The notes beneath the pieces are model-generated. The model was not told where the DNA came from. It searched no databases and saw only the letters and a list, made by a program, of their open reading frames with translations. From a virus (Duplodnaviria; Heunggongvirae; Uroviricota; Caudoviricetes), in IMG/VR virus record IMGVR_UViG_2917865565_000005, positions 1-38,593 of that record: a stretch of DNA of 38,593 nucleotides. One strand, 5' to 3'. Below are positions 1,106 to 33,700 of the stretch, piece after piece (within the stretch, counting starts at the first letter, position 1; the number at the start of each line of letters is the position of its first letter). The position numbers and the translations under genes were made by a program.

Positions 1106-2878
1106 TCATACGTCAGGGGTAATCCAGTCGACTAAAGCCTCAATACTTTCGAAATCTGCACAGATATCTGAAAGAGGTTGTGTATCTGCTTTTGTTTTGA
1201 AATCAGCCCATACTGATTCATTTTTTTCTGTAAGACCCAAATGGTTTTCTATCGAACCGTTTAGCCAAATCCAAATATTTGCATTTCTCAGTTTTGCGGC
1301 TAATGATGACAAAAATTCTCTGGCGCCGGGCTTTTGAGACATAAGAGCAAATGCTTCAGCTGCGGTAGTGTTACTACCCTTTGTAGGCAAACCGGATCCA
1401 TCGAGAGTGCATTCTCCATTAGCATGCATACTTCTCAAGATTTCTTTTAGTCGTAAAATATCCTCGTCATTATGTTCTAAGAAGTTGTTCCTTATTGCAC
1501 CGCGGAACGCAAAATCTAAATCAACAATTGCTTTTGTAGGTATATCCATTGAATTTAGAATTTGCATCGTTTTAGATATACTTTCAACGGACCCTGTTTC
1601 AATTAGTGCTATTTGCATCTGACCTAATGTTTTATTTTTAACTTTGTTAAAAAATAAATGGGAGCAGAGTAGTCTCTGTTTTACCTTCTGTTAGTATTAC
1701 ATTGTTAGCAAATAAAACTTTTGACGACTGTGTTAATGAAAATAAATGGGTTGCTTGTGCTGGTCGTTGTTCGATTACTTTATTGACTGCTTCTTTTAAT
1801 GTTAATCTGCAATGAGTGCCACGCTGACTGTTTTTTCTGATTAATACAGTGTCTTTTGCTAAGTCAGAGGTAATCATTTGAGATGAATGGGTAGAGAAAA
1901 TTATTTGATATCCATGATGAGATAGTGTTTTTAGAGATTCTCTAATTTGTTCGATAGCAAATGGGTGAAGATATAACTCAGGTTCATCTATTAACAGTAG
2001 AGTAGTTGTTTTAATATCATCACCGTTGGTTATATCAGCTAAATGTCTTATTAGAGCCATCTGAATCGAACGCTGTGTGCCATGACCATAAGAAGAACAG
2101 TCACGAGCAATTCCGGGAAATGAATCTTCATATACTTTTACAGTTCCTGATTTAAATATATCCTTGAAGTCAGGGAGTTCGAAGTGTAGTTTTAAACTTA
2201 TCCCTGGGAAGAAATCAGCAACTTTACTACTTATTGAATTATCAATATCATTGAGGTCCGATATTCGTTTATTACCGGTTGCAGTCATTCTTCTGTTAAC
2301 GGCATTTAAATGGCTTAGTATCCTTTGAGTGTGCTTCTCTTCTATTTTGCAACTCAATTCTGCCAGCAACTTACCTATTGTAGTACCTGTTTTTGATTTT
2401 GAAGAATCATCCGCTGCATTTTCCATTGCACCTATACGTATTGGATCTGGAAATAAAGCTTTTATCGCATTCTCAATACCCGTTGGTGATGTCCTGAATT
2501 CGTTATTTTCTGGGTTTTTAATTAATAACCTGACGTCTTTTGCACTTTGAGCACCAACAATCTGTTGACGCTTAAATATCAATACCCCATCAATAATGTA
2601 GGGTGAAATTCTAGTTCTGTTTTCTTCTGTTAAAGCTGACAAAATATCTTCAGTAATACCCTTAACTGTACCTATAACTTCTATAGGGTTATCTGGATTA
2701 GTATAATCATCAGAGGACAAAAGTTTTTTTCTTAAAAAGCCATTCAATAGCATTTAAAATCGTTGACTTACCTGCATTGTTGTAACCTATTAAAGGCGTG
2801 AATGAAGAAAAAATTGATATCAATATCTTTGCAAGATCTAAAGTTTTTTATAGAAATCTTTGAAAGATGATGATTCAT
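1106..2878 (-). pseudogene. old: OLD-family ATPase-TOPRIM nuclease (P2 Old-like); reading frame broken at three homopolymer runs in this sequence, probably intact in reality
   Basis: Minus-strand reading from ATG 2878 (SD GGAGGAG 6 nt upstream): 'MNHHLSKISIKNFRSC', Walker A 'LIGYNNAGKSTILNAIEW', Walker B-like 'LLLIDEPELYLHP', TOPRIM 'VILTEGKTE' then 'AIVDLD' about 45 aa later. These lie in successive frames joined at A6 2808-2813, T7 2724-2730 (or A5 2734-2738) and A6 1649-1654; removing one base at each gives about 589 codons. ORF-track pieces are 1647..2753 and 1106..1618. Confidence 0.7.
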
Positions 2879-5834: not shown

Positions 5835-6074
5835 TTGATTATGCGTAATATTGAAACCCTCACGACTAAAACCGGACCGGATGATGCAGGTCTTAATCTT
5901 TTACTGACAGAGGCCCGTCTTGAAGAACGTCGGGCAAGGGCTGAGGCAATGGCTGCCCGCCTTGATAGCCTGGCGTGTCATATCACATCCCGCCAGCTAA
6001 ACCACGTCGAAGCAGCAGAACTGCTGCGTGTGACCGCTGAAGCAATCCAGAACGAAGCGCAGGAGATCCACTAA
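5835..6074 (+). CDS. Hypothetical phage early protein
   Basis: 79-aa ORF; SD AGGAGA upstream; stop overlaps the next ATG (TAATG). Confidence 0.5.
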   Translation: MIMRNIETLTTKTGPDDAGLNLLLTEARLEERRARAEAMAARLDSLACHITSRQLNHVEAAELLRVTAEAIQNEAQEIH

Positions 6075-6301
6075 TGGCTGATGCAATGGATCTCGTACAG
6101 CAGCGCGTTGAAGAAGAACGCCAGCGCCATATCCGAGCTGCCCGTGCCAAAACACCGGGCGTGTCACGCGTACTTTGCATTGAATGTGAAGCGCCAATTC
6201 CGCCAGCACGCCGCCGCGCCATTCCTGGAGTGCAGCTTTGCATTACCTGTCAGGAAATCGCAGAGCTGAAAGGCAAACATTACAACGGAGGTGCTGTATG
6301 A
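6074..6301 (+). CDS. TraR/DksA-family C4 zinc-finger protein
   Basis: 75 aa with 'CIECEAPIP...(17 aa)...CITCQ' CxxC...CxxC spacing typical of TraR/DksA fingers. Confidence 0.7.
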   Translation: MADAMDLVQQRVEEERQRHIRAARAKTPGVSRVLCIECEAPIPPARRRAIPGVQLCITCQEIAELKGKHYNGGAV

Positions 6302-7155
6302 GCACCATCCTGAAATGGGCGGGAAATAAAACCGCCATTATGTCCGAACTGAAAAAACACCTTCCTGCTGGCCCGCGACTGGTTGAACCTTTCGCGGGTT
6401 CCTGTGCTGTGATGATGGAGACGGATTATCCCAGCTATCTGGTTGCGGATATTAATCCTGATTTAATCAACCTCTATAAAAAGGTTGCCGCTGATTGTGA
6501 ATCATTTATATCTCGCGCCAGAGTTTTATTTAAGGAAGCAAACAGGGAGGTGGCTTATTACAACATAAGGCAGGAGTTTAATTACTCAACTGAAATTACT
6601 GATTTCATGAAAGCGGTATATTTCCTGTATCTCAATCGTCACGGTTACCGTGGTTTATGTCGCTATAACAAGAGCGGGCATTTCAACATTCCCTACGGTA
6701 ATTATAAAAATCCGTATTTCCCTGAAAAAGAAATTCGCGAATTTGCAGAAAAAGCCCAGCGGGCAACGTTTATCTGCGCCAGCTTTGATGAAACGCTGGC
6801 GATGTTGAAGGCGGGGGATGTGGTGTATTGCGATCCGCCTTATGACGGTACGTTTTCCGGCTATCACACTGATGGTTTCACTGAAGATGACCAGTATCAC
6901 CTGGCATCCGTTCTTGAACATCGATCATCAGAAGGTCATCCGGTCATTGTTTCTAACAGTGACACATCCCTGATCCGTTCGCTGTATCGCAATTTCACTC
7001 ACCACTACATCAAGGCAAAACGCAGCATCGGCGTGTCAGCTGGCGAGAGTAAATCTGCAACAGAAATCATTGCTGTTTCCGGGCCGCGCTGCTGGATGGG
7101 ATTTGATCCTTCGCGTGGCGTGGATAGTTCTGCTGTGTACGAGGTGCGTGTATGA
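6298..7155 (+). CDS. dam: DNA N6-adenine methyltransferase (Dam family, no cognate endonuclease seen)
   Basis: 'ILKWAGNK', 'EPFAGSCAV', catalytic 'DPPY'; start ATG 6298 with SD GGAGG; ATGA overlaps with both neighbours. Confidence 0.8.
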
Positions 7156-9566
7156 GTCATGCCGATATGAGCAACTCTAGCGGCTTTAACGAGGCTGCCG
7201 CAGCATTTTCATGGAACGGCCCGAAAAAGGCCATTAACCCTTATCTGGAACCGGCGGAAGTTGCGCCGGAGTCTGCACTTTCAAACATGATCACTCTGTA
7301 CGCTGCCGATAACGAGCAGGAACAGCAGCGCCGCGAGGCACTGAGTGATCAGGTCTGGGAACGTTATTTCTTTAATGAATCCCGTGATCCTGTCCAGCGC
7401 GAAATGGAGCAGGATAAGCTCATTAGCCGGGCAAAGCTGGCGCATGAGCAGCAGCGTTTTGACCCGGACATGGTCATTCTGGCGGACGTCAGCGCCCAGC
7501 CTACCCACATCAGCAAGCCGCTGATGCAACGTATCGAATACTTCAGCAGCCTGGGCAGGCCAAAGGCTTATTCCCGCTATTTGCGTGAGACGATTAAGCC
7601 ATGTCTGGAGCGACTGGAGTATGTACGCGACAGTCAGCTATCCGCTTCTTTCCGTTTTATGGCAAGCCATCAAGGGCTTGAGGGCCTGCTGATCCTGCCT
7701 GAAATGAGTCAGGATCAGGTAAAACGCCTGTCCACCCTGGTAGCAGCGCATATGAGCATGTGTCTTGAGGCCGCTTGTGGTGATTTGTATGCCACCGATG
7801 ACGTTAAGCCAGAAGAAATCCGCAAGACATGGGAAAAGGTGGCAGCGGAAACCCTGCGTCTGGATGTTATCCCGCCTGCGTTTGAGAAACTTCGTCGGAA
7901 AAGAAACCGCCGCAAACCCGTGCCCTATGAACTCATTCCGGGTTCGCTGGCGCGTATGCTTTGCGCCGACTGGTGGTATCGGAAATTATGGAAGATGCGT
8001 AGCGAATGGCGGGAAGAGCAGTTGCGTGCTGTTTGCCTGGTCAGCAAAAAAGCATCTCCCTATGTCAGCTATGAAGCAGTGACGCATAAACGTGAGCAGC
8101 GCCGTAAGTCGCTGGAGTTTTTCCGTTCTCATGAACTGGTGAACGAAGACGGCGACACGCTGGATATGGAAGACGTGGTAAACGCCAGCAGCAGCAACCC
8201 TGCGCATCGCCGCAATGAGATGATGGCCTGTGTTAAAGGTCTGGAGCTTATCGCGGAAATGCGCGGTGACTGCGCCGTTTTCTACACCATCACCTGTCCG
8301 TCACGTTTCCATTCCACGCTCAACAACGGCAGACCCAACCCGACCTGGACAAATGCGACGGTAAGACAAAGCAGCGATTATCTGGTCGGCATGTTTGCTG
8401 CATTTCGTAAGGCGATGCACAAAGCCGGGTTGCGCTGGTATGGCGTGCGGGTGGCTGAGCCGCACCATGACGGTACTGTGCACTGGCATCTCATGTGTTT
8501 CATGCGCAAAAAAGACCGCCGCGCCATTACTGCTTTGTTGCGTAAGTTTGCCATCCGTGAAGACCGCGAGGAACTGGGCAATAACACGGGTCCACGCTTT
8601 AAGTCTGAGCTGATAAACCCGCGCAAAGGAACGCCGACAAGCTACATCGCGAAATACATCAGTAAGAACATTGACGGACGTGGTCTGGCTGGCGAGATCA
8701 GCAAGGAAACGGGTAAGTCCCTGCGTGATAACGCCGAATACGTTAATGCCTGGGCGTCTCTGCATCGTGTTCAGCAGTTCCGCTTCTTTGGTATTCCGGG
8801 GCGTCAGGCGTACCGTGAACTTCGCTTGCTGGCTGGTCAGGCGGCAAGGCAACAGGGTGACAAAAAAGCAGGTGCGCCGGTACTGGATGACCCGCGCCTT
8901 GATGCCATCCTGGCTGCCGCTGATGCTGGCTGTTTTGCCACCTACATCATGAAGCAGGGCGGCGTACTGGTTCCCCGCAAATATCACCTTATCAGAACAG
9001 CTTATGAAATTAACGAAGAGCCGACCGCTTATGGCGATCACGGTATTCGTATTTATGGCATCTGGTCACCCATTGTACAGGGCAAGATCTGCACTCATGC
9101 AATGAAATGGAAAATGGTTCGTAAGGCCGTTGACGTTCAGGAGGCGGCAGCCGACCAGGGCGCTTGCGCCCCTTGGACTCGTGGCAATAACTGTCCCCTT
9201 GCTGAAAATTTGAACCAACAGGAGAAAGATAAATCAGCTGATGGGGACACCAGAACGGACATTACCCGCATGGATGACAAGGAGTTGCACGATTACCTGC
9301 ACAGTATGAGCAAAAAAGAGCGCCGGGAACTGGCTGCAAGGTTACGCTTGGTGAAACCGAAACGGCGTAAAGACTACAAACAGCGAATTACAGATCATCA
9401 GCGACAGCAGCTCGTTTATGAGCTGAAGTCCAGAGGATTTGATGGCAGCGAGAAAGAGGTCGATTTACTCCTTCGCGGCGGCAGTATTCCGTCAGGAGCA
9501 GGCCTGCGTATCTTCTATCGGAACCAGCGTCTGCAGGAGGATGATAAATGGCGGAACCTGTATTAA
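7152..9566 (+). CDS. A: Replication initiation (rolling-circle) endonuclease gpA
   Basis: 804-aa ORF at the P2 gene A position after the small early genes; P2 A-like length; '[10 protein letters not shown]' region. Confidence 0.85.
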
Positions 9567-9636
9567 TTACGCTGGTTAACAATTCGTGCTCTTAATAATA
9601 CCAGGCATATCAGGCTGATGAGCGTAAAAAAAACGT

Positions 9637-9679
9637 TTTACATCAGTAAGATTATTATATACTGTAAATATAAACAGTG
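9637..9679 (+). promoter_or_regulatory. SOS-type promoter with LexA box
   Basis: TACTGTAAATATAAACAGTG (9660-9679) fits CTGT-N8-ACAG with an AT-rich spacer; overlaps a sigma70-like promoter (-35 TTTACA 9637-9642, -10 TATACT 9658-9663); directly upstream of ATG 9721. Confidence 0.6.
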
Positions 9680-9720
9680 TTTATGTGTACAGTATTGCTT
9701 GTGGTGTCATAGGAGGAAAA

Positions 9721-9910
9721 ATGCAGGACTATTTTTTGGAGTCTTTGAAGCTCCAGCGCATTGATTTTTTTTCTTAAGCTTGTAGCGGCTAGTGAGTGTA
9801 GTGATGAAGAGAAGGGACTGGCCCTGCAGTGGGTTTCTGAACTGACAGATGAACTCATGGCAAAAATCAGAACCCACGAATACAACCGCTCAATGGATGT
9901 CATCAGTTGA
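9721..9910 (+). CDS. N-terminal portion of a Tum-like SOS-inducible antirepressor (frame broken at a T8 run)
   Basis: ATG 9721 with SD GGAGG 9712-9716; as given it stops after 18 codons (9721..9777); removing one T from T8 (9765-9772) extends it to TGA 9908-9910. Confidence 0.4.
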
Positions 9911-9920
9911 GGTGACTTTT

Positions 9921-10154
9921 ATGCGCATTGAAATAATGATCGATAAAGAGCAGAAGATTAGCCAGTCTACCTTGGACGCCCTTGAATCCGAGCTTTACCG
10001 CAATCTGCGCCCCCTGTATCCCAAAACGGTAATTCGTATCCGTAAAGGTAGCTCTAACGGTGTGGAACTGACCGGACTGCAACTGGATGAAGAAAGAAAA
10101 CAAGTGATGAAAATTATGCAGAAGGTGTGGGAAGACGACAGCTGGCTGCATTAA
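9921..10154 (+). CDS. DinI-like domain protein (probably the C-terminal domain of the Tum-like antirepressor)
   Basis: From ATG 9921: 'MRIEIMIDKEQKISQSTLDALESELYRNLRPLYPKTVIRIRKG...KIMQKVWEDDSWLH', same length and pattern as E. coli DinI (MRIEVTI...WESADDWF) as recalled. Confidence 0.8.
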   Translation: MRIEIMIDKEQKISQSTLDALESELYRNLRPLYPKTVIRIRKGSSNGVELTGLQLDEERKQVMKIMQKVWEDDSWLH

Positions 10155-10162
10155 GAAACGTT

Positions 10163-10192
10163 GCCCCCAGGAGGATTCATTCTGATGGGGGC
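10163..10192. terminator. GC-rich hairpin between convergent genes
   Basis: Stem GCCCCCA (10163-10169) / TGGGGGC (10186-10192), 16-nt loop; lies between the stops of the DinI-like gene (10154) and the ASCH gene (10345). Long loop, weak T-tracts. Confidence 0.3.
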
Positions 10193-10344
10193 TAGTTTGG
10201 GCAACGAGTGAAACGAGGCGTAAGGTGGGTGGGCATTTTGATAAGTGCTCGTTCGCTTTGTGCCAGAGGCGGGCATTAATACAAATTTCACGTGATAAAA
10301 CGGTACTCAGTTATTCTAATCTGACATGCATAAACGTTGTTGGA

Positions 10345-10755
10345 TTACAAAACATCAACAACTTCAAACTCTTCCATAATCAGCTCCATATCGTCAGAAA
10401 AGTAACCTTCACATGTAAAAAATCGTTGATGCTCTCTCTGCCAATATTCAAGACTCAAATCGCCTTCACCTTCCTTGCGAGCGAACTCGGCAGTAACATC
10501 ACAAAAACGCACCAGTCGCATCGACACCAGCCGGGTCACGCATACCGGTACATCCTGGCCGTTAAGGATGATGTTATAGCTCCCAATCCTTGGGGCAAAC
10601 TCTTCCTTCTGGTAAGAGGCATAAGAGCCGCAGGAGGCCGTTTTAATCCCTTTTTTGATAAGTGCTGCAAGCTCGTTAGCCAGTTCAGGGCTGTCGCCCA
10701 CTTGCCAGGCATTCGCGTCCGGATATTTCATCTTTAATTCATCAACCGTAACCAT
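10345..10755 (-). CDS. ASCH/PUA-like domain protein
   Basis: 136 aa; 'LIKKGIKTASCGS' resembles the ASCH GxKT motif (compare YqfB 'ILAGRKTITIRD'); call by pattern recognition only. Confidence 0.5.
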   Translation of the reverse strand: MVTVDELKMKYPDANAWQVGDSPELANELAALIKKGIKTASCGSYASYQKEEFAPRIGSYNIILNGQDVPVCVTRLVSMRLVRFCDVTAEFARKEGEGDLSLEYWQREHQRFFTCEGYFSDDMELIMEEFEVVDVL

Positions 10756-11064
10756 TACAAGTCCTTTCTGATTGTAAAATAGATAAATAGCTGAGCATTA
10801 ATTGTTCAAATATTAACAGTGATGCTCTCTTGTTAGTATCATAGTCCGTTTCTCGTTCACAGCGGACTTTCATCTTTGTAAACCCGTATGATTCGCTTTT
10901 CAGCGGTCATTCAGATACGGATTTACGCTTCCCTTGGCTGTGCATGACTATGCTGCATGAAATCGCATGATCGATTGAGGATCGTTTTTGCAGAGACCTG
11001 CTAGAACTGGCGGGCTTTTACTCATGTCATGCAGGTGCATGAAAACCACTGCATAAAGCGGGCA

Positions 11065-11083
11065 GGCGTGGCGGGGATACGAG
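11065..11083. other. cos: cos cohesive-end site (P2/186-like)
   Basis: GGCGTGGCGGGGATACGAG followed by CGCGCGCTGAC; first 13 nt match the 186 cos 19-mer and the flank matches the P2 left end (GCGCGCTGAC), both recalled from memory. Confidence 0.5.
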
Positions 11084-11163
11084 CGCGCGCTGACATCGTT
11101 AAGTATTGACATATCAGATGTTTAAATAGGAAAATTACCAAAATCCAGAAAAAAGAAAAGAAT

Positions 11164-12313
11164 ATGAAGAAGTTAACTGCGAGACAAAGAGAGATTGACG
11201 TAAAACGCTCGATAAAGTTACGACAAGGGCGTGCTAAAGTTAGAAAAAAAGGTAAATCATTTCACTATAATGTTGAATGGCGTAAGGCTAACTATTGGAT
11301 TGAAGAACAATCAAAAAATGGATTAGATGTACAATTTGTAAGTAAAAAAAAGAAAGGGTTAATTCTAACTTTACCTTCTGAAATGAATTTTTCTACACAC
11401 TACGATGTTACTGTTCAGCATATTAATGCGATTCGAATGTTATCAGAGAGAAAAGGATTGCCTAATGCAGGTTATCAATTAGCATCTGTTAATTTTTTGT
11501 AATTTGAAGAAAATATCGACATCTGCAGCTCTTGTGTTAACTGCAGAGTTATCTAAATGGGATGATGCGATTAGGCAGAGGTTGACTCCAAAAATAGACG
11601 GTTGGGATAAAAATGTTCTACGTAATTTCTATGAATTGGGGTTCTTTGATTTATTCAAAAAAAGCAGGGATATAAAATTAAATTTTAATGATGAGTATTC
11701 AAAAATAAAAGGTAAGCGATTTGTAAAATATCTTAAAGGAAAGTGTGGGGAAATTAAGAAAACAAAAGTATTAAAAGAGGAGATTATTAAATTAGTTGGT
11801 GAGTCTATTGAAAAATGGACTTTCTTACATGGGGGCCTAAGTGAGGCTATTACCAATGTTTCTCATCATGCATATCCTTCTGATTGCGGATATAAAGAAT
11901 ATGATAAGAACTGGTATCTAACAGGATCTTATCATTTAGAAAGTAAGGAATTGAAGATAGTTTTTTATGATCAGGGTGTTGGTATCCCTAAAACTTTACC
12001 TGCATCAAAAGTTTGGGAAAAGGCATTAAATGTATTAGCATCAATTCCTGTATTGGAGCGATATCGTGATGAAGCACTCTTGAAAGCTGCGGTAGAGTTG
12101 GATAGGACAAGTACAGAAGAGGGAGATCGTGGTAAAGGCCTACAGGATCTACTTGAGTTTATTAAACAAAGAGAAAATGGTTATTTATCAATCATGAGCC
12201 TTAAGGGACTTTATAAACACTCAATGAATCAAGGTAATACAAAAATAAAAACTAAGAGTTTTGCATCCCCAATCTATGGTACACTAATAACTTGGAGTGT
12301 ATCTCTTGATTGA
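11164..12313 (+). CDS. GHKL (histidine-kinase-like ATPase fold) protein with basic N-terminal region; ORFs 11164..11502 and 11504..12313 are probably one gene
   Basis: Downstream ORF has N-box 'LSEAITNVSHHAY', G1 'VFYDQGVGIP', G2 'GDRGKGLQDL', G3 'YGTLITW'; it has no ATG or SD (starts at TTG one base after the upstream stop). Removing one T from T6 (11493-11498) fuses the two in frame. Confidence 0.6.
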
Positions 12314-12327
12314 GATGGAGGTTTAAT

Positions 12328-12735
12328 ATGAAAAATCTAGAAATTAATATAGGGAAAGAGTTTTCTTCTACTCCTTCAGGACGTTTCTATTCTGATATGA
12401 CAGATAGCAGCGGCGAACAGTTTAGAGAGGAGCTTTTATGGCCTCGCTTACAATTGCTTAAAGAAAAGCAAAAGATCGACATTATTTTGGATGATGACGT
12501 TGAAGGTTATGGTTCTTCTTTCCTCGTTGAAGGTTTTGCCGGTATAGTAAAATATGGATATATGGATAAACAACAACTATTAAGTAAACTTGAGTTAATT
12601 CAGAGAGATCCTGATTTTGCTTTGTTTAAGAGAAAAATAATACAATATATTAACGAGGCAGTGTTTGATTCAAAGGTTTATGAAAGTACCAAACCTATTT
12701 ATTTGTCTAAGTTGTTGACGCAAAAAAACACGTAA
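12328..12735 (+). CDS. Small STAS-like (anti-sigma-antagonist-like) protein
   Basis: 135 aa from ATG 12328 (SD GGAGG 12317-12321); 'KIDIILDDDVEGYGSSFLVEGFAGIVK' resembles the STAS phospho-serine loop region; stop overlaps the SD of the next gene. Confidence 0.5.
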   Translation: MKNLEINIGKEFSSTPSGRFYSDMTDSSGEQFREELLWPRLQLLKEKQKIDIILDDDVEGYGSSFLVEGFAGIVKYGYMDKQQLLSKLELIQRDPDFALFKRKIIQYINEAVFDSKVYESTKPIYLSKLLTQKNT

Positions 12736-12747
12736 GGAGTAAAGCAA

Positions 12748-13392
12748 ATGGAGCCCAATTATAATTATCATTATATGATGAGTAATAATGAGCTTTATTT
12801 TAGGGCGGGTTATGATGCTCAGCAATATGGGTTTGTTTTTTCTCATTCGGCTGTTGATGATGTCGACTTGGTACATATTATCAATGGTGGTTTTTCATCT
12901 GTTGCAGAAGCTATTAGTAACTCAGGAAACACCACACTTTCTGATGGGATTATACTTGCATTAGCAGGTGCGTTGAGTGCTTTTTTCTTTAATTTGATTC
13001 AAAAAGGAATTGACGCTAAGGCAAAACGTCTCACCAAATCTGGTGAAGCAATGTTATCCTTGATAAATGAATTGGAGGATATTGCAGTACGTTATTGGGT
13101 CAGAGGGCACGATTCATCTTGTGCTGATAATGAAAGCAATATTTGTGATGAGATTAATATCAAAGCCATGTTAATGACCTTGGATAAAAATATTAGGTTT
13201 ATGGTTGATAATTTACCGTTAAAAAACAAGTCTTTAAATAAAAATAAGCTGGAGAAATTTTCTTCTGATATTTATGATTTGGCATCTGGTGAAGATTTCG
13301 AAGCAGAGGTTAGGCCTCCCAATAAAACAAAGGCCTTTGCTATATCGAAAAAATGTAGTGAAGCAAAAGCCATCATTCTTGGTTTGATTTAA
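12748..13392 (+). CDS. Hypothetical protein with one hydrophobic (possible transmembrane) segment
   Basis: 214 aa; SD AAGGAG 12734-12739; hydrophobic stretch 'IILALAGALSAFFFNLI'; stop codon overlaps the portal gene stop on the other strand. Confidence 0.55.
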   Translation: MEPNYNYHYMMSNNELYFRAGYDAQQYGFVFSHSAVDDVDLVHIINGGFSSVAEAISNSGNTTLSDGIILALAGALSAFFFNLIQKGIDAKAKRLTKSGEAMLSLINELEDIAVRYWVRGHDSSCADNESNICDEINIKAMLMTLDKNIRFMVDNLPLKNKSLNKNKLEKFSSDIYDLASGEDFEAEVRPPNKTKAFAISKKCSEAKAIILGLI

Positions 13393-14417
13393 AAACGGTA
13401 ATCCTCAAAGTTAATTACTGTTATGTTTAACCAAATATTTAGCTCTGTTATTCTTTTCTGAAGAATTTCTAATTCATTTTTTACGAATACTTTGGCAGCT
13501 TTCTCCACATCCCCAAACCCCCCAACATTATTAGGCATTATCCCCATCATTTGCGGCGGCACTCGGTGTGCTGCCATCATGTCATCGCGGCTGACATTTT
13601 TGATATTCAGAAATTCATCCTTCGCCGCGACTTCTGACAGAGGAATGATCTGAAGCCCGTCCTTTTTGCCGTTAGGCGAGTACATAAACAGATTGCGGAA
13701 GTTGCCAGGGCCTTTGGCGCTTTTCATCGCATTGCGGAGGTTGTTCACATCCTCCTGGTTTTGCGCGGCATCGGTCATGTACATGATAAAGCCCGCATGG
13801 CTGCCGTTAATGTAATACTTGCGACGGAACAGCGTGGCGGACTCGTTGAGCAGGGCTGACGGAATGGCAGAAAGATAACCGGGCAGGCCGTAGATCTCCT
13901 GATTAATATCCGGTTCCATCAGGTGAAAAATGCTGCCTTTCGTGAACTGATACGGTTGCGTGGTCATGCCGTATTGCACAAACCAGTAGGTATCCAGATC
14001 TAATCCGCGTCGGGTGTATTTTGCCAGCGCAGGCTCAAGGGCGATAACTTCACCGAATCGGTTCGTGCGTTTCTCCAGGTAGGCGTTACCAAATACCAGA
14101 TAGTCCTGCACAAAACGTGAAAAAGCCTGTTGGCTGAGCAGCGGGTGAGGGATGTAGGTGCTGGTCAAAATGTTGCATTTCACCGCAATCGGTGAGCTGT
14201 GATGCACGGCGGCGCGGAAGGTTCGCGCCAGTCCGTCGAAACTTACAGGCGGCTCATACCAGCGATCCATCTGTACGCATTCCACATAGTCCAGCAGTTC
14301 ACGGCGGTCCAGAACAGGAACGGGATCGCCAAAGCTGAATGCTTCGGCTGAAGTTTGGCTTTTATGCTTGAGCTGATTCGTCGCCGCAGCGCGGTTCTTC
14401 TTACTCTTTCCCATCAA
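13389..14417 (-). CDS. Q: Capsid portal protein gpQ
   Basis: 342 aa, P2 Q-like length, paired with the terminase gene as in P2 (Q-P leftward). Confidence 0.9.
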   Translation of the reverse strand: MMGKSKKNRAAATNQLKHKSQTSAEAFSFGDPVPVLDRRELLDYVECVQMDRWYEPPVSFDGLARTFRAAVHHSSPIAVKCNILTSTYIPHPLLSQQAFSRFVQDYLVFGNAYLEKRTNRFGEVIALEPALAKYTRRGLDLDTYWFVQYGMTTQPYQFTKGSIFHLMEPDINQEIYGLPGYLSAIPSALLNESATLFRRKYYINGSHAGFIMYMTDAAQNQEDVNNLRNAMKSAKGPGNFRNLFMYSPNGKKDGLQIIPLSEVAAKDEFLNIKNVSRDDMMAAHRVPPQMMGIMPNNVGGFGDVEKAAKVFVKNELEILQKRITELNIWLNITVINFEDYRF

Positions 14418-16180
14418 AAAATCTCCACAATATTACTGGTATTGGCGGACTCGCCCTGCAGTGGTTCGTTAAACAGTGCGTGCATTGTTGCCCAGGCCAG
14501 ATCGGCGTGGCTGGCTTCTTCGCTGCGGTTGGCTTCATAGGTCGGGCGGTTGCCGCTGGCGGTAGTGGCGCGACGGATTGCCATAAATGATTGCGCAATG
14601 TCGGTGTGTCCGGCGTCAAATTCCAGGCGGCGGTGACTGATAATGTCGTAGGCCTTGAGTACCAGGGCGTTTTTAACGTTGGGGTTGTAGACAAACTCCC
14701 GGACGGCAGGAAAGAACGCTTTCACGTTCTCGTAAACCCCGTGACCGACGCCGGTTGAGTCGATACCGATATAGGTCACGTTGTACTGTTCAGTCAGTTT
14801 TTTGATGGCGTCAGCCTGGGCGCGGAAGTCCATCCCGCGCCACTGGTGACGCTCAAGAATGCGGAACTTACCGCCCGGCACCGCTGGCGGAGCCACCACC
14901 ACGCATCCGGCACTGTCGCCGTTTTGCGTACCTTTCGCCGGGTCATATCCGATCCACACTTCGCGCCAGCCAAACGGACGCAGGGCCAGTGCATGAAAGT
15001 CGGTCCAGACTTCCCAACTGTCCACCATGCACGCCTGCAGCTCGCTGAGCGGGAACACGGACGCGAGATCGTCCACAAACTCGCACATCAGCAGGTTCTG
15101 GTATTCGTCCGGGCTGTACTCCATGCGCAGCTGGTCGAGGTCGAATAGGTTACAGCCGCCGCGCACCGCATCTTCCACGGTGACTATCTGGCGGTATTGC
15201 CCGTCTGCACACAGCAGGCCGGGAGCCAGATTGCTGTGGGACAGGTCGATGTCCACCTTATCGGCTTTGTTGCGCCCACGGTTGAACAGCGCACCGGACC
15301 AGAACGGATAAGCACTGTGGGTCAGGCTGGATGGTGTGGAAAAATAGGTCTGTCGCCATTTCTTGTGAATAGCCATACCGGAAGCCACTTTGCGCAGCTC
15401 CTGGAATTTCGGTATCCAGAAATATTCATCCAGATACAGGTTGCCGTGGTAACTCTGGGCCGTGCGGGCATTGGTGCCGAGGAAGTAAAGCGTGGCCCCG
15501 TTGGGAAGCACCATCGGATCGCCTTTCAGCTCCACCTCCACTTCTTTGGCGAAGTCGATGATGTACTGTTTAAAGACGTGGGCCTGTGCCTTACTGGCGG
15601 AAAGGAAAATCTGGTTACGTCCGGTAAGCAGGGCGTCAATCAGGGCTTCACGGGCAAAGTAAAAGGTCGCGCCGATCTGGCGTGACTTCAGCAGGTTGCG
15701 GATGCGGTTGGTTTTTCCGGCTTCCCACCAGTGGCGCTGGTAGTTGAACATGGAGGAATGGAAAATTTCTTCCAGCTTCTCAATCTGTTCATCGGTGAAA
15801 ACGTTCTTTTCCGGCTGACGGCGTGGGCCTTTGTTGCGGTTGGCGACGTTAGGGTTTAAGTCGGCTTCGTTGCCGCCATTGTTAAACTTGCCGATCCGCG
15901 CGTGGCGTTCCGACTGGCGCGCCAGCAGGTCAATCTCTTTGAAATCTTTCCCTTCTTTGTGCTCCTTCATAATGAGCTGGCAGTAGCGTGCGGCGGTGGT
16001 GAGCTGCATCTGATCCAGCGGCCCATAGTCACCCCACTTGTCGCGTTTTTTCCAGCTGTGAACGGTTGCAACTTTCTCGCCCAGCATTTCAGCAATGCGG
16101 GCTACGCGGTATCCCTGAAAGTACAGCAGCATGGCCTGCCGACGGGGATCGAGATCTGCGGGTGTCAGTGTGGTGTTCAT
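14414..16180 (-). CDS. P: Terminase large (ATPase) subunit gpP
   Basis: 588-aa ORF; P2 P-like length and position; overlaps Q by 4 nt. Confidence 0.9.
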   Translation of the reverse strand: MNTTLTPADLDPRRQAMLLYFQGYRVARIAEMLGEKVATVHSWKKRDKWGDYGPLDQMQLTTAARYCQLIMKEHKEGKDFKEIDLLARQSERHARIGKFNNGGNEADLNPNVANRNKGPRRQPEKNVFTDEQIEKLEEIFHSSMFNYQRHWWEAGKTNRIRNLLKSRQIGATFYFAREALIDALLTGRNQIFLSASKAQAHVFKQYIIDFAKEVEVELKGDPMVLPNGATLYFLGTNARTAQSYHGNLYLDEYFWIPKFQELRKVASGMAIHKKWRQTYFSTPSSLTHSAYPFWSGALFNRGRNKADKVDIDLSHSNLAPGLLCADGQYRQIVTVEDAVRGGCNLFDLDQLRMEYSPDEYQNLLMCEFVDDLASVFPLSELQACMVDSWEVWTDFHALALRPFGWREVWIGYDPAKGTQNGDSAGCVVVAPPAVPGGKFRILERHQWRGMDFRAQADAIKKLTEQYNVTYIGIDSTGVGHGVYENVKAFFPAVREFVYNPNVKNALVLKAYDIISHRRLEFDAGHTDIAQSFMAIRRATTASGNRPTYEANRSEEASHADLAWATMHALFNEPLQGESANTSNIVEIF

Positions 16181-18231: not shown

Positions 18232-18882
18232 ATGAGCCTGAGTCCCGCACGGCAGCATCGCCTGCGCGTTCAGGCTGAACAGGCCGCCCGCGAGGGTGGC
18301 AGTGTTCGCCACGCGTCGGGCTATGACCTGATGCTGCTGCAACTGGCGGAAGACCGCCGCCGTCTCAAGGGCGTTCAGTCCACGGTCAAAAAAGCGGAAA
18401 TCAAGGTGGAGCTGCTGCCGAAGTACGCCGCCTGGGCAGAGGGCGTCCTGGCTGCCGGAGGCACTCAACAGGATGACGTGCTGATGTACGTGATGCTGTG
18501 GCGCATTGATGCCGGAGATTATGCCGGGGCGCTGGAGATCGGGCGTCATGCCCTGCGTCATAGCTGGGTGATGCCACTGGGTAACCGCAATGTGCAGACC
18601 GTGCTGGCAGAGGAAATGGCAGACGCGGCGCAGAGCGCAATGCTTGCCGCCACCGGCTTTGATGCCGATCTGTTGCTGCAGACGCTGGAGCTGACAGACG
18701 GTCTGGATATGCCGGACCAGTCACGGGCGCGTCTGCATAAAGCGATTGGCGCTGTCCTGAGTGAAAGCAATCCGGCTTCCGCCCTTAACCATCTCAACCA
18801 TGCGTTGCAGCTCGATCACCGCTGTGGCGTGAAAAAAGACAAACAGCAGCTGGAGCGCAGACTGCGCAATGACAGCCGCTGA
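18232..18882 (+). CDS. M: Terminase small (endonuclease) subunit gpM
   Basis: 216-aa ORF after N as in P2. Confidence 0.8.
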   Translation: MSLSPARQHRLRVQAEQAAREGGSVRHASGYDLMLLQLAEDRRRLKGVQSTVKKAEIKVELLPKYAAWAEGVLAAGGTQQDDVLMYVMLWRIDAGDYAGALEIGRHALRHSWVMPLGNRNVQTVLAEEMADAAQSAMLAATGFDADLLLQTLELTDGLDMPDQSRARLHKAIGAVLSESNPASALNHLNHALQLDHRCGVKKDKQQLERRLRNDSR

Positions 18883-27410: not shown

Positions 27411-28401
27411 TTATTGGCTGGCTTTTGAGAGCAATATACTTTGTATGTGTGAAAATAATCGGTCCATGATTCTGGAAGAAATTGTACTGCTTAATAAGTA
27501 ACATATAGCAAAGCTGATTATTACTGTACCTACCAATATGAACGGCCATGACAACATCTTATTTAGGTAAGTGGAAATGTATAATATAAATAGACCATGT
27601 AACAGATATATACTAAGACTATTTTTTCCAAACCGCTCTAAAATTACACAGGTGGGTTTTAGCTGCATAAGAGCTAATACAAAAGCCGGAACCGCTGCGT
27701 AGTTGACTACTTTGTATAACATAAGTACAACTATAGATTTATCAAAATAAGAGAATGGAAAAGCGCCGTAGAGAAATATGGTAGGTGCAAGTATCGATAA
27801 AATCACTAATGCAATAACTGCTGAGAATAAAATGAGGTATATCGTATTTTTGTCGTGCCTTATACGTAATAAATTATTCCGATAAAATAACGCTCCTATA
27901 ATGAAGTAGGGTAGAAAATTAATTGTCCTCATAATGGATAGAGTCTGCGAACTGAAATCAATGAATTGAAATGCGAAGCTTATAAGTAAAGAAAGACAAA
28001 GAGGGTAACGGAAGGTGAATAGAACAGAAGCAATTATTTGCCAGAAAAAAAAGGCTTAAAAGATACCACATTATCCAATAAGGCGCGCCAATCTTAAGAT
28101 AACCAGAAATACTTCCTGTCAGCAAGAAGTTGATAAATTCATAAATAAAATTAAAAACAATGAATGGAACAAGAATATGTTTGCTTAATTTGTATATGTC
28201 AAGATTGCTACATCCCTTGCTAAGAAAACCAGAAATTAATACAAAGGCGGGCATGTGAAATGTGTAAATGAAATCATATATGTATTTCACTTGTTCATGT
28301 TCTACGCCACCGCCAAGTATGTGCGCCATAACCACCAGGAAAATTAACGCGCCTTTGAGCGTATCGATAGTGTTATCACGATTATCGATCTGTTGTGCCA
28401 C
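27411..28401 (-). pseudogene. Acyltransferase family 3 (O-antigen O-acetyltransferase-like) membrane protein; frame broken at an A8 run
   Basis: N-terminal motif 'NRDNTIDTLKGALIFLVVMAHIL' and 'FHMPAFVLISGFL'; multiple TM helices; two ORFs (27958..28407 and 27411..27932) join if A8 (28045-28052) is A7; GTG start 28401 with SD AAGGA (TTG 28407 in the ORF track). Confidence 0.7.
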
Positions 28402-28495
28402 GGACAATCCTTAAGTGTATATAGTTAGTTTTCTGTTGAAGACAGTATCCAGGGTAACGGATTCAATTAAAAGTATTAAATGAGAATCTGATAAT

Positions 28496-30642: not shown

Positions 30643-30776
30643 CGGTTGACGATCTGGTGGCAGATATCGCCACCATTTTTCACTGGCCGCCATCCGTTAC
30701 TGACGTTATGCCGCTGACCGAAGTGCTGGAATGGCGGTATAAAGCGATTCAGAGAAGCGGGGCCAACGATGAGTGA
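30340..30776 (+). CDS. E+E': gpE+E' extended tail chaperone made by programmed -1 ribosomal frameshift
   Basis: After a -1 slip at T TTT TTG the frame reads '...VEEVGACRFTDSLTVDDLVADIATIFHWPPSVTDVMPLTEVLEWRYKAIQRSGANDE*', ending at 30774-30776 just inside the T start. Confidence 0.65.
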
Positions 30777-33700
30777 TAATAACCTGCGCCTGCAGGTCAT
30801 TCTTAATGCGGTTGACAAACTCACCCGCCCATTCCGTGCTGCACAGGCCAGTTCGAAAGAGCTGGCTGGCGCAATCAGAAACTCCCGTGACGCATTAAAG
30901 CAACTCAATCAGGCGGGTAACAGCCTGGAAAAATTTCGCAAGCTGCAGGCCGATAACAAAAAGTTAGGCGACAGGCTGAACTATGCCAGACAGAAGGCAA
31001 ATTTGCTTAGTTCTGAGCTGGAAGCGATGGAACAACCATCACAACGGCACCTTGTGGCTTTAGGTCGGCAAACGCTGGCAGTCCAACGCCTGGAAGAACA
31101 ACAAAAATATTTGCAGAAGCAAACGGCGCTTGTGCGTGCAGAACTGTACCGGGCGGGAATTTCTGCGAAAGACGATGCGGGAGCAACCGCCCGTTTAGCC
31201 CGTGAAACATCACGTTATAACCAGGAACTTTCGAAACAGGAGGCGCGGCTGAAGCGATTGGGGGAAGCTCAGCGCAGGATGAATGCAGCGCGTGCCAGTT
31301 ATGCCCGTTCGCTGGAGGTGCGTGATCGTATTGCAGGTGCCGGAGCCACCACCACGGCTGCAGGACTAGCAATGGGCGCACCAGTGATGGCGGCAGTAAA
31401 AAGCTATACCAGCATGGAAGATGCCATGAAAGGTGTGGCAAAGCAGGTCAATGGTCTGCGTGACGATAATGGCAACCGCACTGCACGTTTTTATGAAATG
31501 CAGGATGCCATCAAGGCTGCCAGCGAACAGTTGCCGATGGAAAACGGTGCGGTGGACTTCGCTGCACTGGTTGAAGGTGGTGCGCGCATGAACGTCGCAA
31601 ACCCTGACGACAGCTGGGAAGACCAGAAACGTGACCTGCTGGCCTTCGCCAGTACGGCAGCAAAGGCGGCAACAGCCTTTGAGCTGCCAGCGGATGAACT
31701 GTCAGAAAGTCTGGGGAAAATCGCCCAGCTCTACAAAATACCTACCCGCAATATTGAACAGCTCGGCGATGCGCTGAACTATCTGGATGATAACGCCATG
31801 TCGAAAGGGGCGGACATCATTGATGTGATGCAACGTCTGGGCGGTGTGGCTGACCGTCTGGATTATCGTAAAGCGGCGGCACTGGGTTCCACCTTTCTGA
31901 CACTGGGCGCTGCGCCGGAGGTTGCAGCCAGTGCAGCAAACGCGATGGTGCGTGAATTGTCCATTGCCACCATGCAAAGCAAGAGTTTCTTTGAAGGGAT
32001 GAATCTGCTGAAACTCAATCCTGAAGTGATTGAAAAGCAGATGACGAAGGATGCGATGGGAACTATCCAGCGTGTGCTGGAGAAGGTGAACGCACTGCCG
32101 CAGGACAAGCGTCTGTCTGCCATGACCATGTTGTTTGGTAAAGAGTTTGGTGATGACGCGGCGAAACTGGCAAACAACCTTCCGGAACTGCAGCGCCAGC
32201 TAAAACTGACAGCGGGCAATGATGCGCTCGGTTCCATGCAGAAAGAATCCGACATCAACAAAGACTCACTTTCTGCTCAGTGGTTGCTGGTCAAAACCGG
32301 AGCGCAGAACACCTTCAGCAGCCTGGGCGAAACGCTGCGCCAGCCGCTGATGGATATTCTGTACACGGTGAAAAGCATCACGGGGGCGTTGCGCCGCTGG
32401 GTGGAAGCTAACCCGGAACTGACAGGCACACTGATGAAAGTAGCGGCTGTTGTGGCTGCGGTTACCGTAGGCCTCGGCACCTTAGCGGTGGCGCTGGCTG
32501 CAGTGCTGGGGCCGCTGGCAGTGATCCGTCTGGGATTCTCTGTGCTGGGTATCAAAACGTTACCTTCCGTTACGGCAGCAGTAACTCGAACCAGCAACGC
32601 GTTGTCCTGCCTGGCTGGCGCACCACTGGCACTGCTGCGACGCGGGCTTGCTTCATCGAGGAGCAGTGCGGGTTTGCTTACTGCGCCGCTGTTGTCTTTG
32701 CGCCGCACGGCATCACTGACGGGGAATGCCCTGAAAACTGTGGCAGCTGCGCCGGTTGCACTTTTGCGGTCTGGATTATCCGGTTTACGTGCTGTTACTG
32801 TGATGTTTATGAATCCTCTGGCGGTACTGCGCGGTGGACTGGCTGCCGCAGGCGCGGTGCTTCGTGTGCTTGCATCCGGTCCGCTGGCGATGCTGCGCGT
32901 TGCCCTGTATGCCATATCTGGTCTGTTAGGTGCTCTGCTCAGTCCGATAGGTCTTGTGGTTACTGCTCTGGCGGGTGTGGCGCTGGTTGTCTGGAAATAC
33001 TGGCAACCCATCACCGCATTTCTCGGTGGCGTGGTGGAAGGATTCAAAGCGGCGGCAGGTCCCGTCAGTGCCGCATTCGAACCGCTTAAGCCCGTGTTCC
33101 AGTGGGTTGGCGACAAAGTACAGGCGCTGTGGGGCTGGTTTACTGATCTGCTGACGCCCGTTAAGTCGACCTCTGCCGAACTGCAGAGTGCAGCGGCAAT
33201 GGGGCGGCGATTCGGGGAGGCACTGGCGGAAGGGCTGAATATGGTCATGCATCCGCTGGACTCCCTGAAATCCGGCGTTTCCTGGTTGTTGGATAAACTC
33301 GGCATTGTCAGTAAAGAGGCCGCAAAGGCAAAACTGCCGGAAAGCGTGACGCGTCAGCAACCTGCGACGGTGAATGCAGACGGTAAAGTGATGATGACAT
33401 CGGGTGGTTTTCCGTCATGGGGATATGGCTTTGCGGGGATGTATGACAGCGGCGGGTATATCCCGCGTGGGCAGTTTGGCATCGTCGGTGAAAATGGGCC
33501 GGAAATTGTTAACGGCCCGGCAAACGTGACCAGCCGGAGAAATACCGCTGCACTGGCTGCGGTTGTTGCCGGAATGATGGGCGTTGCTGCCGCGCCAGCA
33601 GAGCTTCCACCGTTGCATCCTTTGGCACTTCCCGCGAAAGGCGGTGAAGCGATGGTGAGTCGCGCAGCTACTGTGCCGCCCATTCAACGGATTGAGGCAC

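Follow-up and report, generated by a model that had tools for sequence, protein, structure and literature searches.

A predicted GHKL-STAS-membrane gene cassette in the cos-to-portal slot of a 186/Fels-2-type prophage

The cos sites of P2, P4 and 186 comprise a core of about 55 bp with 19-nt 5' cohesive ends (Ziermann & Calendar 1990, as cited), and the same core and ends are described for P2/P4-type cos in PMC5694545 and PMC2231350. Cargo between cos and the portal gene is likewise a described arrangement (Dodd & Egan 1996 and Nakayama 1999, as cited in PMC5694545 and PMC6868368). Retrons Ec67 and Ec86 of 186-related prophages lie directly after cosL and are reported to replace about 180 bp between cos and the terminator past the portal gene, while ctx of phiCTX and ORF1-4 of Ralstonia phiRSY1 (PMC5694545) occupy the same cos-to-portal position; in these accounts all of them are read towards the convergent portal gene. 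In P4, the gop-beta-cII hotspot begins 247 bp after cosL. Rousset et al. 2022 (PMC9122126) described the gpA-gpQ region of P2-like phages as a “cos-adjacent” hotspot, and a 2026 NAR study (PMC13586616) leaves open how the cassettes are swapped. Where these two studies delimit the hotspot, it is bounded by protein-coding genes and the two sides of cos are not separated.

We analysed a stretch of viral DNA of 38,593 nt (hereafter “the window”) in which genes for the P2-type terminase, portal, scaffold and capsid are all present. With a probability of about 85%, it represents a complete-looking P2-family prophage of the 186/Fels-2 type that has its cos site at 11036-11091 and carries, in the normal accessory or defence hotspot of its lineage between cos and the portal gene Q, a cassette of the GHKL-STAS-membrane type. 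With the gene order A, DinI, cos, (cargo), Q, P, O, N, M, the site has the replication/accessory region on one side and the Q-P packaging genes on the other (Table 1).

Table 1. Features around cos and the cargo slots, in window coordinates
Feature	Position	Strand	Remarks
Gene A	7152-9566		
DinI/Tum-like gene	9849-10154	+	Pfam DinI, E=1.3e-22; last conserved gene ahead of the cos-proximal variable region
Variable slot 1, A side of cos	10165-10939	.	holds a single ASCH-domain gene
ASCH-domain gene	10345-10755	-	Pfam ASCH, E=1.4e-22
Conserved block ahead of cos	10940-11035	+	includes terminator-like hairpin 10997-11014
cos core	11036-11091	+	counterpart of the ~55-bp core common to P2 and P4
Predicted 19-nt 5' cohesive end	11065-11083	+	GGCGTGGCGGGGATACGAG; register agrees with the cohesive ends annotated for P2 and 186
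Sigma-70-like promoter candidate for the cassette	11106-11135	+	TTGACA, 18-nt spacer, GAAAAT; consensus scan, 10/12, pattern match only
Gene 1, GHKL-type ATPase, 382 aa when intact	11164-12313	+	split here into 11164-11502 and 11504-12313
Gene 2, STAS-like DUF4325 protein, 135 aa	12328-12735	+	Pfam DUF4325, E=1.9e-4
Gene 3, 214 aa	12748-13392	+	one predicted transmembrane helix, residues 67-85; stop overlaps the Q stop
Q 3' tail, last ~36 codons	13389-13498	-	AT-rich, inherited with the cassette
Portal gene Q	13389-14417	-	Pfam Phage_portal; 62% identical to P2 gpQ over 339 residues, tail included
Large terminase gene P	14414-16180	-	Pfam Terminase_5, Terminase_6N, Terminase_6C
Small terminase gene M	18232-18882	+	Pfam Phage_term_smal

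A P2/P4/186-type core of 56 bp was located by ungapped comparison with the circularised genomes of P2, P4 and 186, whose ends were taken as annotated in NC_001895 and NC_001317. The core has 43/56 identities to P2, 43/56 to P4 and 44/56 to 186; for scale, P2 and 186 agree with each other at 48/56. Within it, the predicted cohesive end matches P2 at 14 and 186 at 15 of 19 positions, and its first 13 nt are those of 186. The window shares with P2, P4 and 186 the arm TGCAT-AAAACC-hairpin-AAGCGGGC, the G-rich 19-mer and the CGCGCGC flank, as well as the terminase type and the place of the site relative to the Q-P packaging genes, while its hairpin loop and the last six bases of the 19-mer (ATACGAG) differ from those of P2 and 186. 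This variant is common to Fels-2, SopEPhi, RE2010, SEN8 and many Klebsiella prophages, and the 19-mer is unchanged in the first four; the SEN8 record begins at it and labels it there as “putative cos site”. Database entries with this 19-mer name the site as putative, and the start of the SEN8 record was therefore rejected as an indirect mapping of the ends. In addition, a degenerate cos pattern of 36 nt has a single occurrence in the window, and 100 shuffles yielded none. By this homology, the segment is the cos site of the window prophage. Cleavage at the variant is predicted, and the exact cut positions are extrapolated since the 19-mer differs from that of P2 at 5/19 positions. An earlier sequence-only reading had called cos at a P2/186-like 19-mer, and alignment with the P2 and 186 ends bears this out; the coordinates it gave for the quoted sequence, 11065-11093, are right at the start and one base short at the end (11094).

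By homology with P2, P4 and 186, a terminase of the gpM/gpP type would make nicks 19 nt apart at cos, yielding a linear genome whose left end starts with the predicted cohesive end. The cassette, a self-contained low-GC trio that would be transcribed from cos towards Q, would thus lie at about nt 100-2,330 of the packaged DNA. The gene order agrees with the sequence-only reading, which had the cargo lying between cos and Q, at the far left of what would be the packaged genome. Its estimate of about 2.3 kb of cargo is matched by the 2,305 bp that separate the 19-mer from the Q stop, and the overlap it saw between the last cargo gene and the Q stop codon is due to the tetranucleotide TTAA at 13389-13392, which belongs to both convergent reading frames. 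The openly searchable literature offered nothing usable on the order in which the ends of P2 DNA enter or leave the capsid. The interval has a GC content of 0.25-0.40 versus about 0.5. Its left edge is sharp: homology ends at 11090-11094 among the best matches listed, with 1,273 E. coli records matching. Integration linked to tRNA was ruled out as no tRNA gene is present in the window.

The same reading had considered this an unusual insertion point, which does not hold for the relatives. We surveyed 137 loci with a recognisable cos from the 186/Fels-2-like, DinI/Tum-carrying branch of the P2 family: the distance from cos to Q exceeds 300 bp in 126 of them (median 1,684 bp), and their intervals encode 113 protein clusters, nearly all oriented convergently to Q. 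The encoded proteins match AbiL, AriA, OLD, GmrSD, TIR, RT, DprA, SieB and other families, and many of the clusters match defence families. Four E. coli relatives with inspected annotation all carry cos-Q genes, which differ and include DprA and retron Ec67; the retron fills the slot in an E. coli prophage with 95.6% identity. The ctx locus of phiCTX and cargo of phages SEN8 and Cartapus sit in the same place. One locus (L070) has a cos-Q distance of exactly 2,305 bp as well, which we take as a coincidence, since it has no cargo sequence in common with the window. Among complete E. coli genomes, none covers at least 80% of 9600-14600, though 1,288 share the flanks. Cargo between cos and Q is therefore the rule in this branch, an already known arrangement.

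The contrast with P2 drawn by the sequence-only reading holds for the P2-type (Peduovirus) lineage, where the interval is compact in 77/79 loci, and fails for the 186/Fels-2-like branch. What it said of P2 itself is correct: cosL occupies 1-19 and Q 187-1221, with tin and old across cos at 30684-33380. Cargo is found on the A side of cos in the P2-type lineage and mainly on the Q side in the 186/Fels-2-type lineage.

The A side of cos in the window is also variable. Homology to near-identical prophages extends to 10164, and slot 1, which begins there, is 775 bp long in the window versus 69 bp in the prophages L174-L177, elsewhere 97-98% identical; in E. coli relatives it contains ASCH together with a restriction endonuclease. 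Between this slot and the cos core lies a conserved block whose terminator-like hairpin, detected by a scan, has a position similar to that of t95b of 186, annotated upstream of cos. Two cargo slots flank cos, with the Q-side slot starting immediately outside the core; its left edge is fixed by the essential cos core and its right edge falls within the last ~36 codons of Q. The published gpA-gpQ hotspot corresponds to slots 1 and 2 of the window together, and the window's Q-side slot falls inside it; unlike the delimitation given in those studies, the two sides of cos here behave as independent slots.

The trio in the Q-side slot resembles the partner-switching pairs SpoIIAB-SpoIIAA and RsbW-RsbV, which combine a GHKL serine kinase with a STAS protein; such modules have a phosphorylatable serine on the latter and a sigma factor as the sequestered output. 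Gene 1 is split by one extra T (+1) in a T6 run at 11493-11498, and deletion of one T restores a 382-aa protein that is 100% identical to P0001; each of its 443 homologues is a single protein of about 375-385 aa. By sequence alone, it matches Pfam HATPase_c_2 at E=0.05, below the curated cut-off, and a sequence search of the PDB found nothing. In a Foldseek search against the PDB, its AlphaFold model (pLDDT 79, pTM 0.78) has SpoIIAB as the best match (E=1.9e-5, target TM 0.70), followed by GyrB ATPase domains, and the invariant residues E227, N231, D269, G271, G323 and G325 fit the N, G1 and G2 boxes of the Bergerat fold. The modelled C-terminal GHKL fold is thus predicted to be closest to SpoIIAB, with the residues of these motifs invariant. 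Beside the GHKL gene lies a candidate for the STAS partner: gene 2 scores 21.5 bits against DUF4325 (just below the cut-off of 23), the same family passes in relatives, and the partner gene of E. coli P2-type prophages shares 60% identity with it. Unlike those pairs, gene 1 has an extra N-terminal domain of about 200 residues, a sigma factor gene is missing, and the product of a conserved third gene is predicted to span the membrane once.

This third protein has no match in family searches, Pfam, PADLOC and PHROGs among them, but is 31-32% identical to the third gene product of the trios of E. coli (L178) and Cycloclasticus (L183), two of the relatives in which the trio is kept together. The Kyte-Doolittle 19-residue maxima of these three proteins are 1.70-1.88, all located in the aligned N-terminal segment. 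A protein of the same 90%-identity cluster as P0001, WP_124880485, is listed with a DUF4325 partner in the supplementary gpA-gpQ table of Rousset et al. 2022. PADLOC (PADLOC-DB v2) returned no match, whether queried with the window proteins, with intact P0001 or with the trios of E. coli and Cycloclasticus, and PHROGs returned only families of unknown function for the cassette. As neither PADLOC nor the PDB sequence search gave a match, we rejected its identity with a catalogued defence system. Based on the modelled fold, the composition of the trio and its location, we suggest that it represents a sensor of the partner-switching type coupled to a membrane effector, and that it probably serves in anti-phage defence or exclusion. 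The +1 frameshift in gene 1 probably means that the trio is inactive in the window genome, or else mis-sequenced. Altogether three cargo genes of the window prophage are split, the other two breaks lying at about 1650 and about 27940, which would fit either a decaying element or homopolymer errors in the assembly.

Over its last ~36 codons Q is hypervariable, and this stretch is linked to the cargo and not to the body of the gene, an observation that may be new; the searchable literature held nothing relevant on hypervariable portal tails. Nucleotide homology of Q to most relatives stops at 13470-13498, beyond which the tail has a GC content of 0.27-0.28 versus about 0.5 in the Q body. Pairs of loci with the same cargo have a tail identity of 0.979 and pairs with different cargo 0.637, while the corresponding values for the body are 0.955 and 0.932. 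Tail and body are equally conserved in the P2-type control lineage, although this set consists of the 80 best matches, a choice that favours conserved tails. Unlike in Ec67 and Ec86, the replaced segment goes about 110 bp into the portal reading frame and leaves no terminator. We suppose that related phages would exchange cassettes through homologous recombination in which the cos block and the Q/P genes act as arms, and that linked divergence would then build up beside a locus under diversifying selection. Homologous recombination and hitchhiking alone do not explain why the Q tails linked to the cassettes are uniformly AT-rich.

An alternative is that the portal C-terminus is functionally co-adapted to the resident cassette, for example to avoid self-triggering or to manage convergent transcription, and that the trio is a new partner-switching anti-phage system. 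This combined proposal, which takes as its premise that every cargo cassette in the lineage is accompanied by its own AT-rich version of the last ~36 codons of Q, seems unlikely. We hold it quite unlikely, too, that the tail alone has been selected with the cargo, for example as a portal C-terminus that escapes the resident defence or as one tuned to convergent transcription from the cargo. The linkage of tail and cargo is tight, residues 321-340 vary at the amino acid level (identity 0.44-0.60), and the terminator that follows Q in P2 and 186 is absent from the window, where the genes overlap. However, the linkage holds for many unrelated kinds of cargo, and the changes in codons 301-320 are mostly synonymous (identity 0.89 for amino acids versus 0.74-0.79 for nucleotides), as expected of old linked lineages under purifying selection, while conservation of the tail motif extends to P2.

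The cos-like sequence might also be a relic, with the packaging site located elsewhere, for example beside Q, or with a defective prophage that is never packaged, in which case a left end of the packaged genome would be meaningless. The three disrupted accessory genes would fit this, as would a large deletion joining the C-terminal terminase region to the sheath gene in the near-identical metagenomic copies L174 and L175. Yet all backbone genes checked are intact, and a loose 13-mer search of the 38.6-kb window revealed no second cos-like site beside Q and only chance-level matches elsewhere. Moreover, the block of about 150 bp formed by 10940-11035 and the cos core is 86-99% conserved in 45 phage records and in 1,269 of 5,426 E. 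coli genomes, and it is found in isolated plaque-forming or induced phages (SopEPhi, RE2010, SEN8 and Cartapus), which makes a relic very unlikely. A recent one-off insertion of the 2.3-kb cassette by a transposon, IS or integron-like element, suggested by its low GC content and abrupt borders, is highly improbable, since a search of the cos-Q interval found no transposase, integrase, terminal inverted repeats or flanking direct repeats, more than 100 unrelated cassettes use the same borders, and the cassette carries its own Q tail, which fits phage-phage exchange and not transposition.

As stated by the sequence-only reading, the finding amounts to calling cos correctly within a textbook arrangement, situated in the best-studied defence hotspot of P2-like phages. 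A smaller point that could be useful is the structure of this hotspot, which really consists of two independent slots split by the terminator-plus-cos block, with different lineages favouring different sides; this matters for the automatic delimitation of cassettes. The trio is widespread, with at least 443 homologues ranging from enterobacterial prophages to a Cycloclasticus chromosome, and represents a candidate system. Finally, the unit exchanged in the cos-Q slot includes the 3' end of the portal gene, which offers a concrete handle on the swapping of cassettes.

The sequence that the sequence-only reading had matched to the P2/186 cohesive end was found at 11065–11094, and its identification is upheld by alignment with the annotated ends of P2 (cosL 1–19, cosR 33575–33593), 186 and P4, taken from public records and rebuilt as circular junctions. 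The cos core of the window (11036–11091) aligned in register and without gaps, with 43/56 identities to P2, 43/56 to P4 and 44/56 to 186 (for comparison, P2 and 186 have 48/56 in common), while the 19-mer at 11065–11083, the predicted cohesive end, matched P2 in 14/19 and 186 in 15/19 positions. P2 and P4 have a stretch in common that begins some 29 bp ahead of the 19-mer and extends 8 bp beyond it; this stretch corresponds to the ~55-bp core credited to Ziermann and Calendar 1990 in PMC5694545 and PMC2231350. A 36-nt degenerate cos pattern occurred once in the window and in none of 100 shuffles, and a loose 13-mer search of the window found no second cos near the portal gene Q. We have high confidence, from sequence comparison, that the cos call is correct.

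The geometry proposed for this region also agrees with our measurements. The cargo of about 2.3 kb between cos and the Q stop spans 2,305 bp from the 19-mer, and the last cargo gene overlaps the Q stop, the TTAA at 13389–13392 being common to both ORFs. The position at the extreme left end holds for the predicted linear genome. The description of P2 was also right: in its annotation, Q starts 167 bp past the 19-mer, and tin and old are located on the opposite side of cos. The window contents are a P2-family prophage, whose layout is summarised in the table.

Features of the prophage and of the region around cos (positions in the window)
Feature	Position	Strand	Remarks
Integrase	1–1032	minus	
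CI-type repressor			between integrase and gene A in left-to-right order
Replication gene A	7152–9566		
DinI/Tum-like gene	9849–10154		
Slot 1	10165–10939		single ASCH gene at 10345–10755, minus strand
Conserved block	10940–11091		terminator-like hairpin 10997–11014, then cos core
Promoter-like site	11106–11135		in slot 2, along with three genes
Portal Q	13389–14417	minus	
Q 3' tail	13389–13498	minus	last ~36 codons; loci L009–L168 (surveyed relatives) compared
Large terminase P	14414–16180	minus	
Scaffold O, capsid N			right of terminase P, left of M
Small terminase M	18232–18882		
Lysis and tail genes			right of M, as far as host permease gene at 35971

The region consists of two independent variable slots flanking one conserved block, in which the hairpin is placed similarly to t95b of 186. 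Slot 1, on the A side of cos, comprises 775 bp in the window versus 69 bp in four prophages (L174–L177) that otherwise match the window at 97–98% identity and share its slot-2 cassette; the contents of slot 1 in E. coli MB06022 and 2547 are ASCH and a restriction endonuclease. Slot 2, the cos-to-Q interval, begins 8–11 bp past the 19-mer and has a GC content of 0.25–0.40 versus ~0.5 in the backbone. No repeats or recombinase genes were found flanking the cassette. Two of the four prophages, the metagenomic copies L174 (11249–12305) and L175 (10344–11400), have a large deletion, so that the C-terminal region of the terminase runs straight into the tail sheath gene at its C-terminal part, with the loss of capsid, lysis and most tail genes.

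The suggestion that this is an unusual insertion point must be abandoned. Of 5,426 complete E. coli genomes, 1,269 contain the conserved block of ~150 bp, as do 45 phage records; among the best matches listed, homology ends at 11090–11094, just beyond the cos core. Genes separate the cos-core edge from the portal gene in every relative inspected: SopEPhi (orf14 and orf15), the isolated phages SEN8 and Cartapus, and three E. coli prophages, one of them with DprA (a DprA-PRTase system of the gpA–gpQ hotspot is described by Rousset et al. 2022, PMC9122126). Exactly the same slot is occupied by a retron Ec67-family reverse transcriptase in E. coli 2547, whose flanks show 95.6% identity to the window; the cytotoxin gene of phiCTX, ctx, is placed between cosL and Q, and in P4 the gop-beta-cII genes begin 247 bp past cosL. 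A survey covered 160 loci encoding relatives of the window Q, drawn from one genome of each species and from IMG/VR contigs. A cos could be recognised in 137, of which 126 have a cos–Q interval above 300 bp (median 1,684 bp, maximum 3,499 bp). These intervals contain 210 ORFs (113 clusters), almost all of which point from cos to Q like the window cassette, with family matches to AbiL, AriA, OLD, PtuA, SspE, GmrSD, TIR, reverse transcriptase, AIPR, PIN_12, DprA, SieB, Cap4 nuclease and others. The contrast drawn with P2 stands for the P2-type lineage, where 77 of the 79 loci with a recognisable cos have a compact interval of 156–170 bp and variable DNA is on the A side of cos, but it fails beyond that lineage. 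The arrangement is ordinary and previously described for the window's lineage: Rousset et al. 2022 (PMC9122126) define a hotspot “adjacent to the cos site” whose limits are gpA and gpQ. The cassette family is already catalogued at this locus; the supplementary table of the same paper lists WP_124880485, which clusters at 90% identity with the intact gene 1 protein, alongside a DUF4325 partner.

On one surveyed contig, labelled Chryseobacterium sp. 18061 (L070), a P2-like locus combines a Q of 65% identity to that of the window with an exact cos motif of the enterobacterial type; the label may reflect contamination or a mislabelled contig. Its cos–Q distance, also 2,305 bp, is a coincidence, because the two have no cargo sequence in common.

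The cassette-linked DNA reaches into the portal gene. Nucleotide homology of the window Q to most relatives stops at 13470–13498, ~36 codons before the stop, and the tail has a GC content of 0.27–0.28. Among Q genes otherwise ~94% identical, nucleotide identity falls to 0.56 in the tail, and GC3 drops from ~0.65 to 0.28 over the same span.

Mean pairwise identity along 78 distinct Q genes whose proteins are at least 93% identical to the window Q
Codons	Nucleotide	Amino acid
1–300	0.87–0.98	~0.95–1.00 (0.72 in codons 11–20)
301–310	0.79	0.89
311–320	0.74	0.90
321–330	0.64	0.61
331–340	0.56	0.44

Across 161 loci, 133 distinct 36-residue tails occur. Loci with the same cargo (43 pairs) have a tail identity of 0.979, and those with different cargo (3,197 pairs) one of 0.637, while the Q body in these pairs gives 0.955 versus 0.932; the tail follows, and is inherited with, the neighbouring cargo. 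The C-terminus of P2 gpQ can be aligned with the window tail, which is therefore a constrained part of the portal. The P2-type loci have no cargo abutting Q; in the 80 of them that matched best, a choice favouring conserved tails, the tail (0.96–0.99) is conserved to the same degree as the body and no AT-rich hypervariable tail is seen. On the simplest reading, related phages swap cassettes, Q tail included, by homologous recombination, crossing over once in the cos block and once within Q; DNA beside a locus under diversifying selection would then gather old, linked divergence. Such exchange leaves the uniform AT-richness of the tails unexplained. We found no earlier description of a cassette-linked portal tail in the searchable literature; the correlations that a 2026 NAR study (PMC13586616) reports between core genes and defence content are weak ones only, at the level of whole genes.

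P2 and 186 have a terminator after Q (tQ and tW, respectively), whereas no intrinsic terminator was found after Q in the window. As predicted from sequence, late P–Q transcripts would run antisense through the cargo. The minus-strand hairpins in 13012–13392 and 11046–11061 are only weak, one inside gene 3 and one beside cos.

In the cassette itself, the ORFs 11164–11502 and 11504–12313 are parts of a single gene, whose frame is interrupted by an additional T within the T-run 11493–11498 (T6). Removing one T gives a 382-aa protein 100% identical to P0001, the intact version found in E. coli and gut metagenomes, and all 443 of 443 homologues are single proteins of ~375–385 aa. TGC20138.1 from Escherichia sp. 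E2562 clusters with the intact protein at 90% identity and has the length of the frameshifted second ORF (269 aa). Either the sequence is in error at the break or the gene is a pseudogene particular to the strain. Two further accessory genes are disrupted, while the backbone genes checked are all intact. An OLD-like nuclease gene (1106–2753, minus strand; AAA_15/AAA_21 and OLD-like TOPRIM domains), sited between the integrase and the CI repressor, is split into ORFs of 368 and 170 aa next to a T-run, just past the Toprim-like VILTEGKTE sequence. An Acyl_transf_3 acyltransferase gene (27411–28407, minus strand), between the tail-fibre assembly and sheath genes (the P2 Z/fun position), is the third; it is broken into two ORFs, which match profile positions 3–134 and 188–324.

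A structure model of the gene 1 protein built from 52 homologues (pLDDT 79, pTM 0.78) predicts a C-terminal GHKL domain, with SpoIIAB as the best PDB match (E=1.9e-5, target TM 0.70), followed by GyrB ATPase domains; the invariant residues E227, N231, D269, G271, G323 and G325 fit the ATP-binding boxes. SpoIIAB is an anti-sigma factor and serine kinase. Gene 2 is STAS-like (DUF4325), scoring slightly below the Pfam cut-off, and gene 3 has one predicted membrane helix. No PADLOC model matched the trio. It is kept as a unit in a Pantoea prophage, again between cos and Q; in E. coli prophages of the P2 type, where it lies across cos, on the A side (in one of these, L178, the cassette is at 6001–8160 and the 19-mer at 8293); and in a Cycloclasticus chromosome (L183, 5001–7125), where the 5 kb to each side are free of phage genes. 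On the basis of fold, location and the association of the genes, we read the trio as a putative partner-switching-like sensor with a membrane effector, probably serving as an exclusion or abortive-infection module. The putative function of this GHKL/STAS/membrane trio and the cassette-linked portal tail are the only parts that might repay more work.
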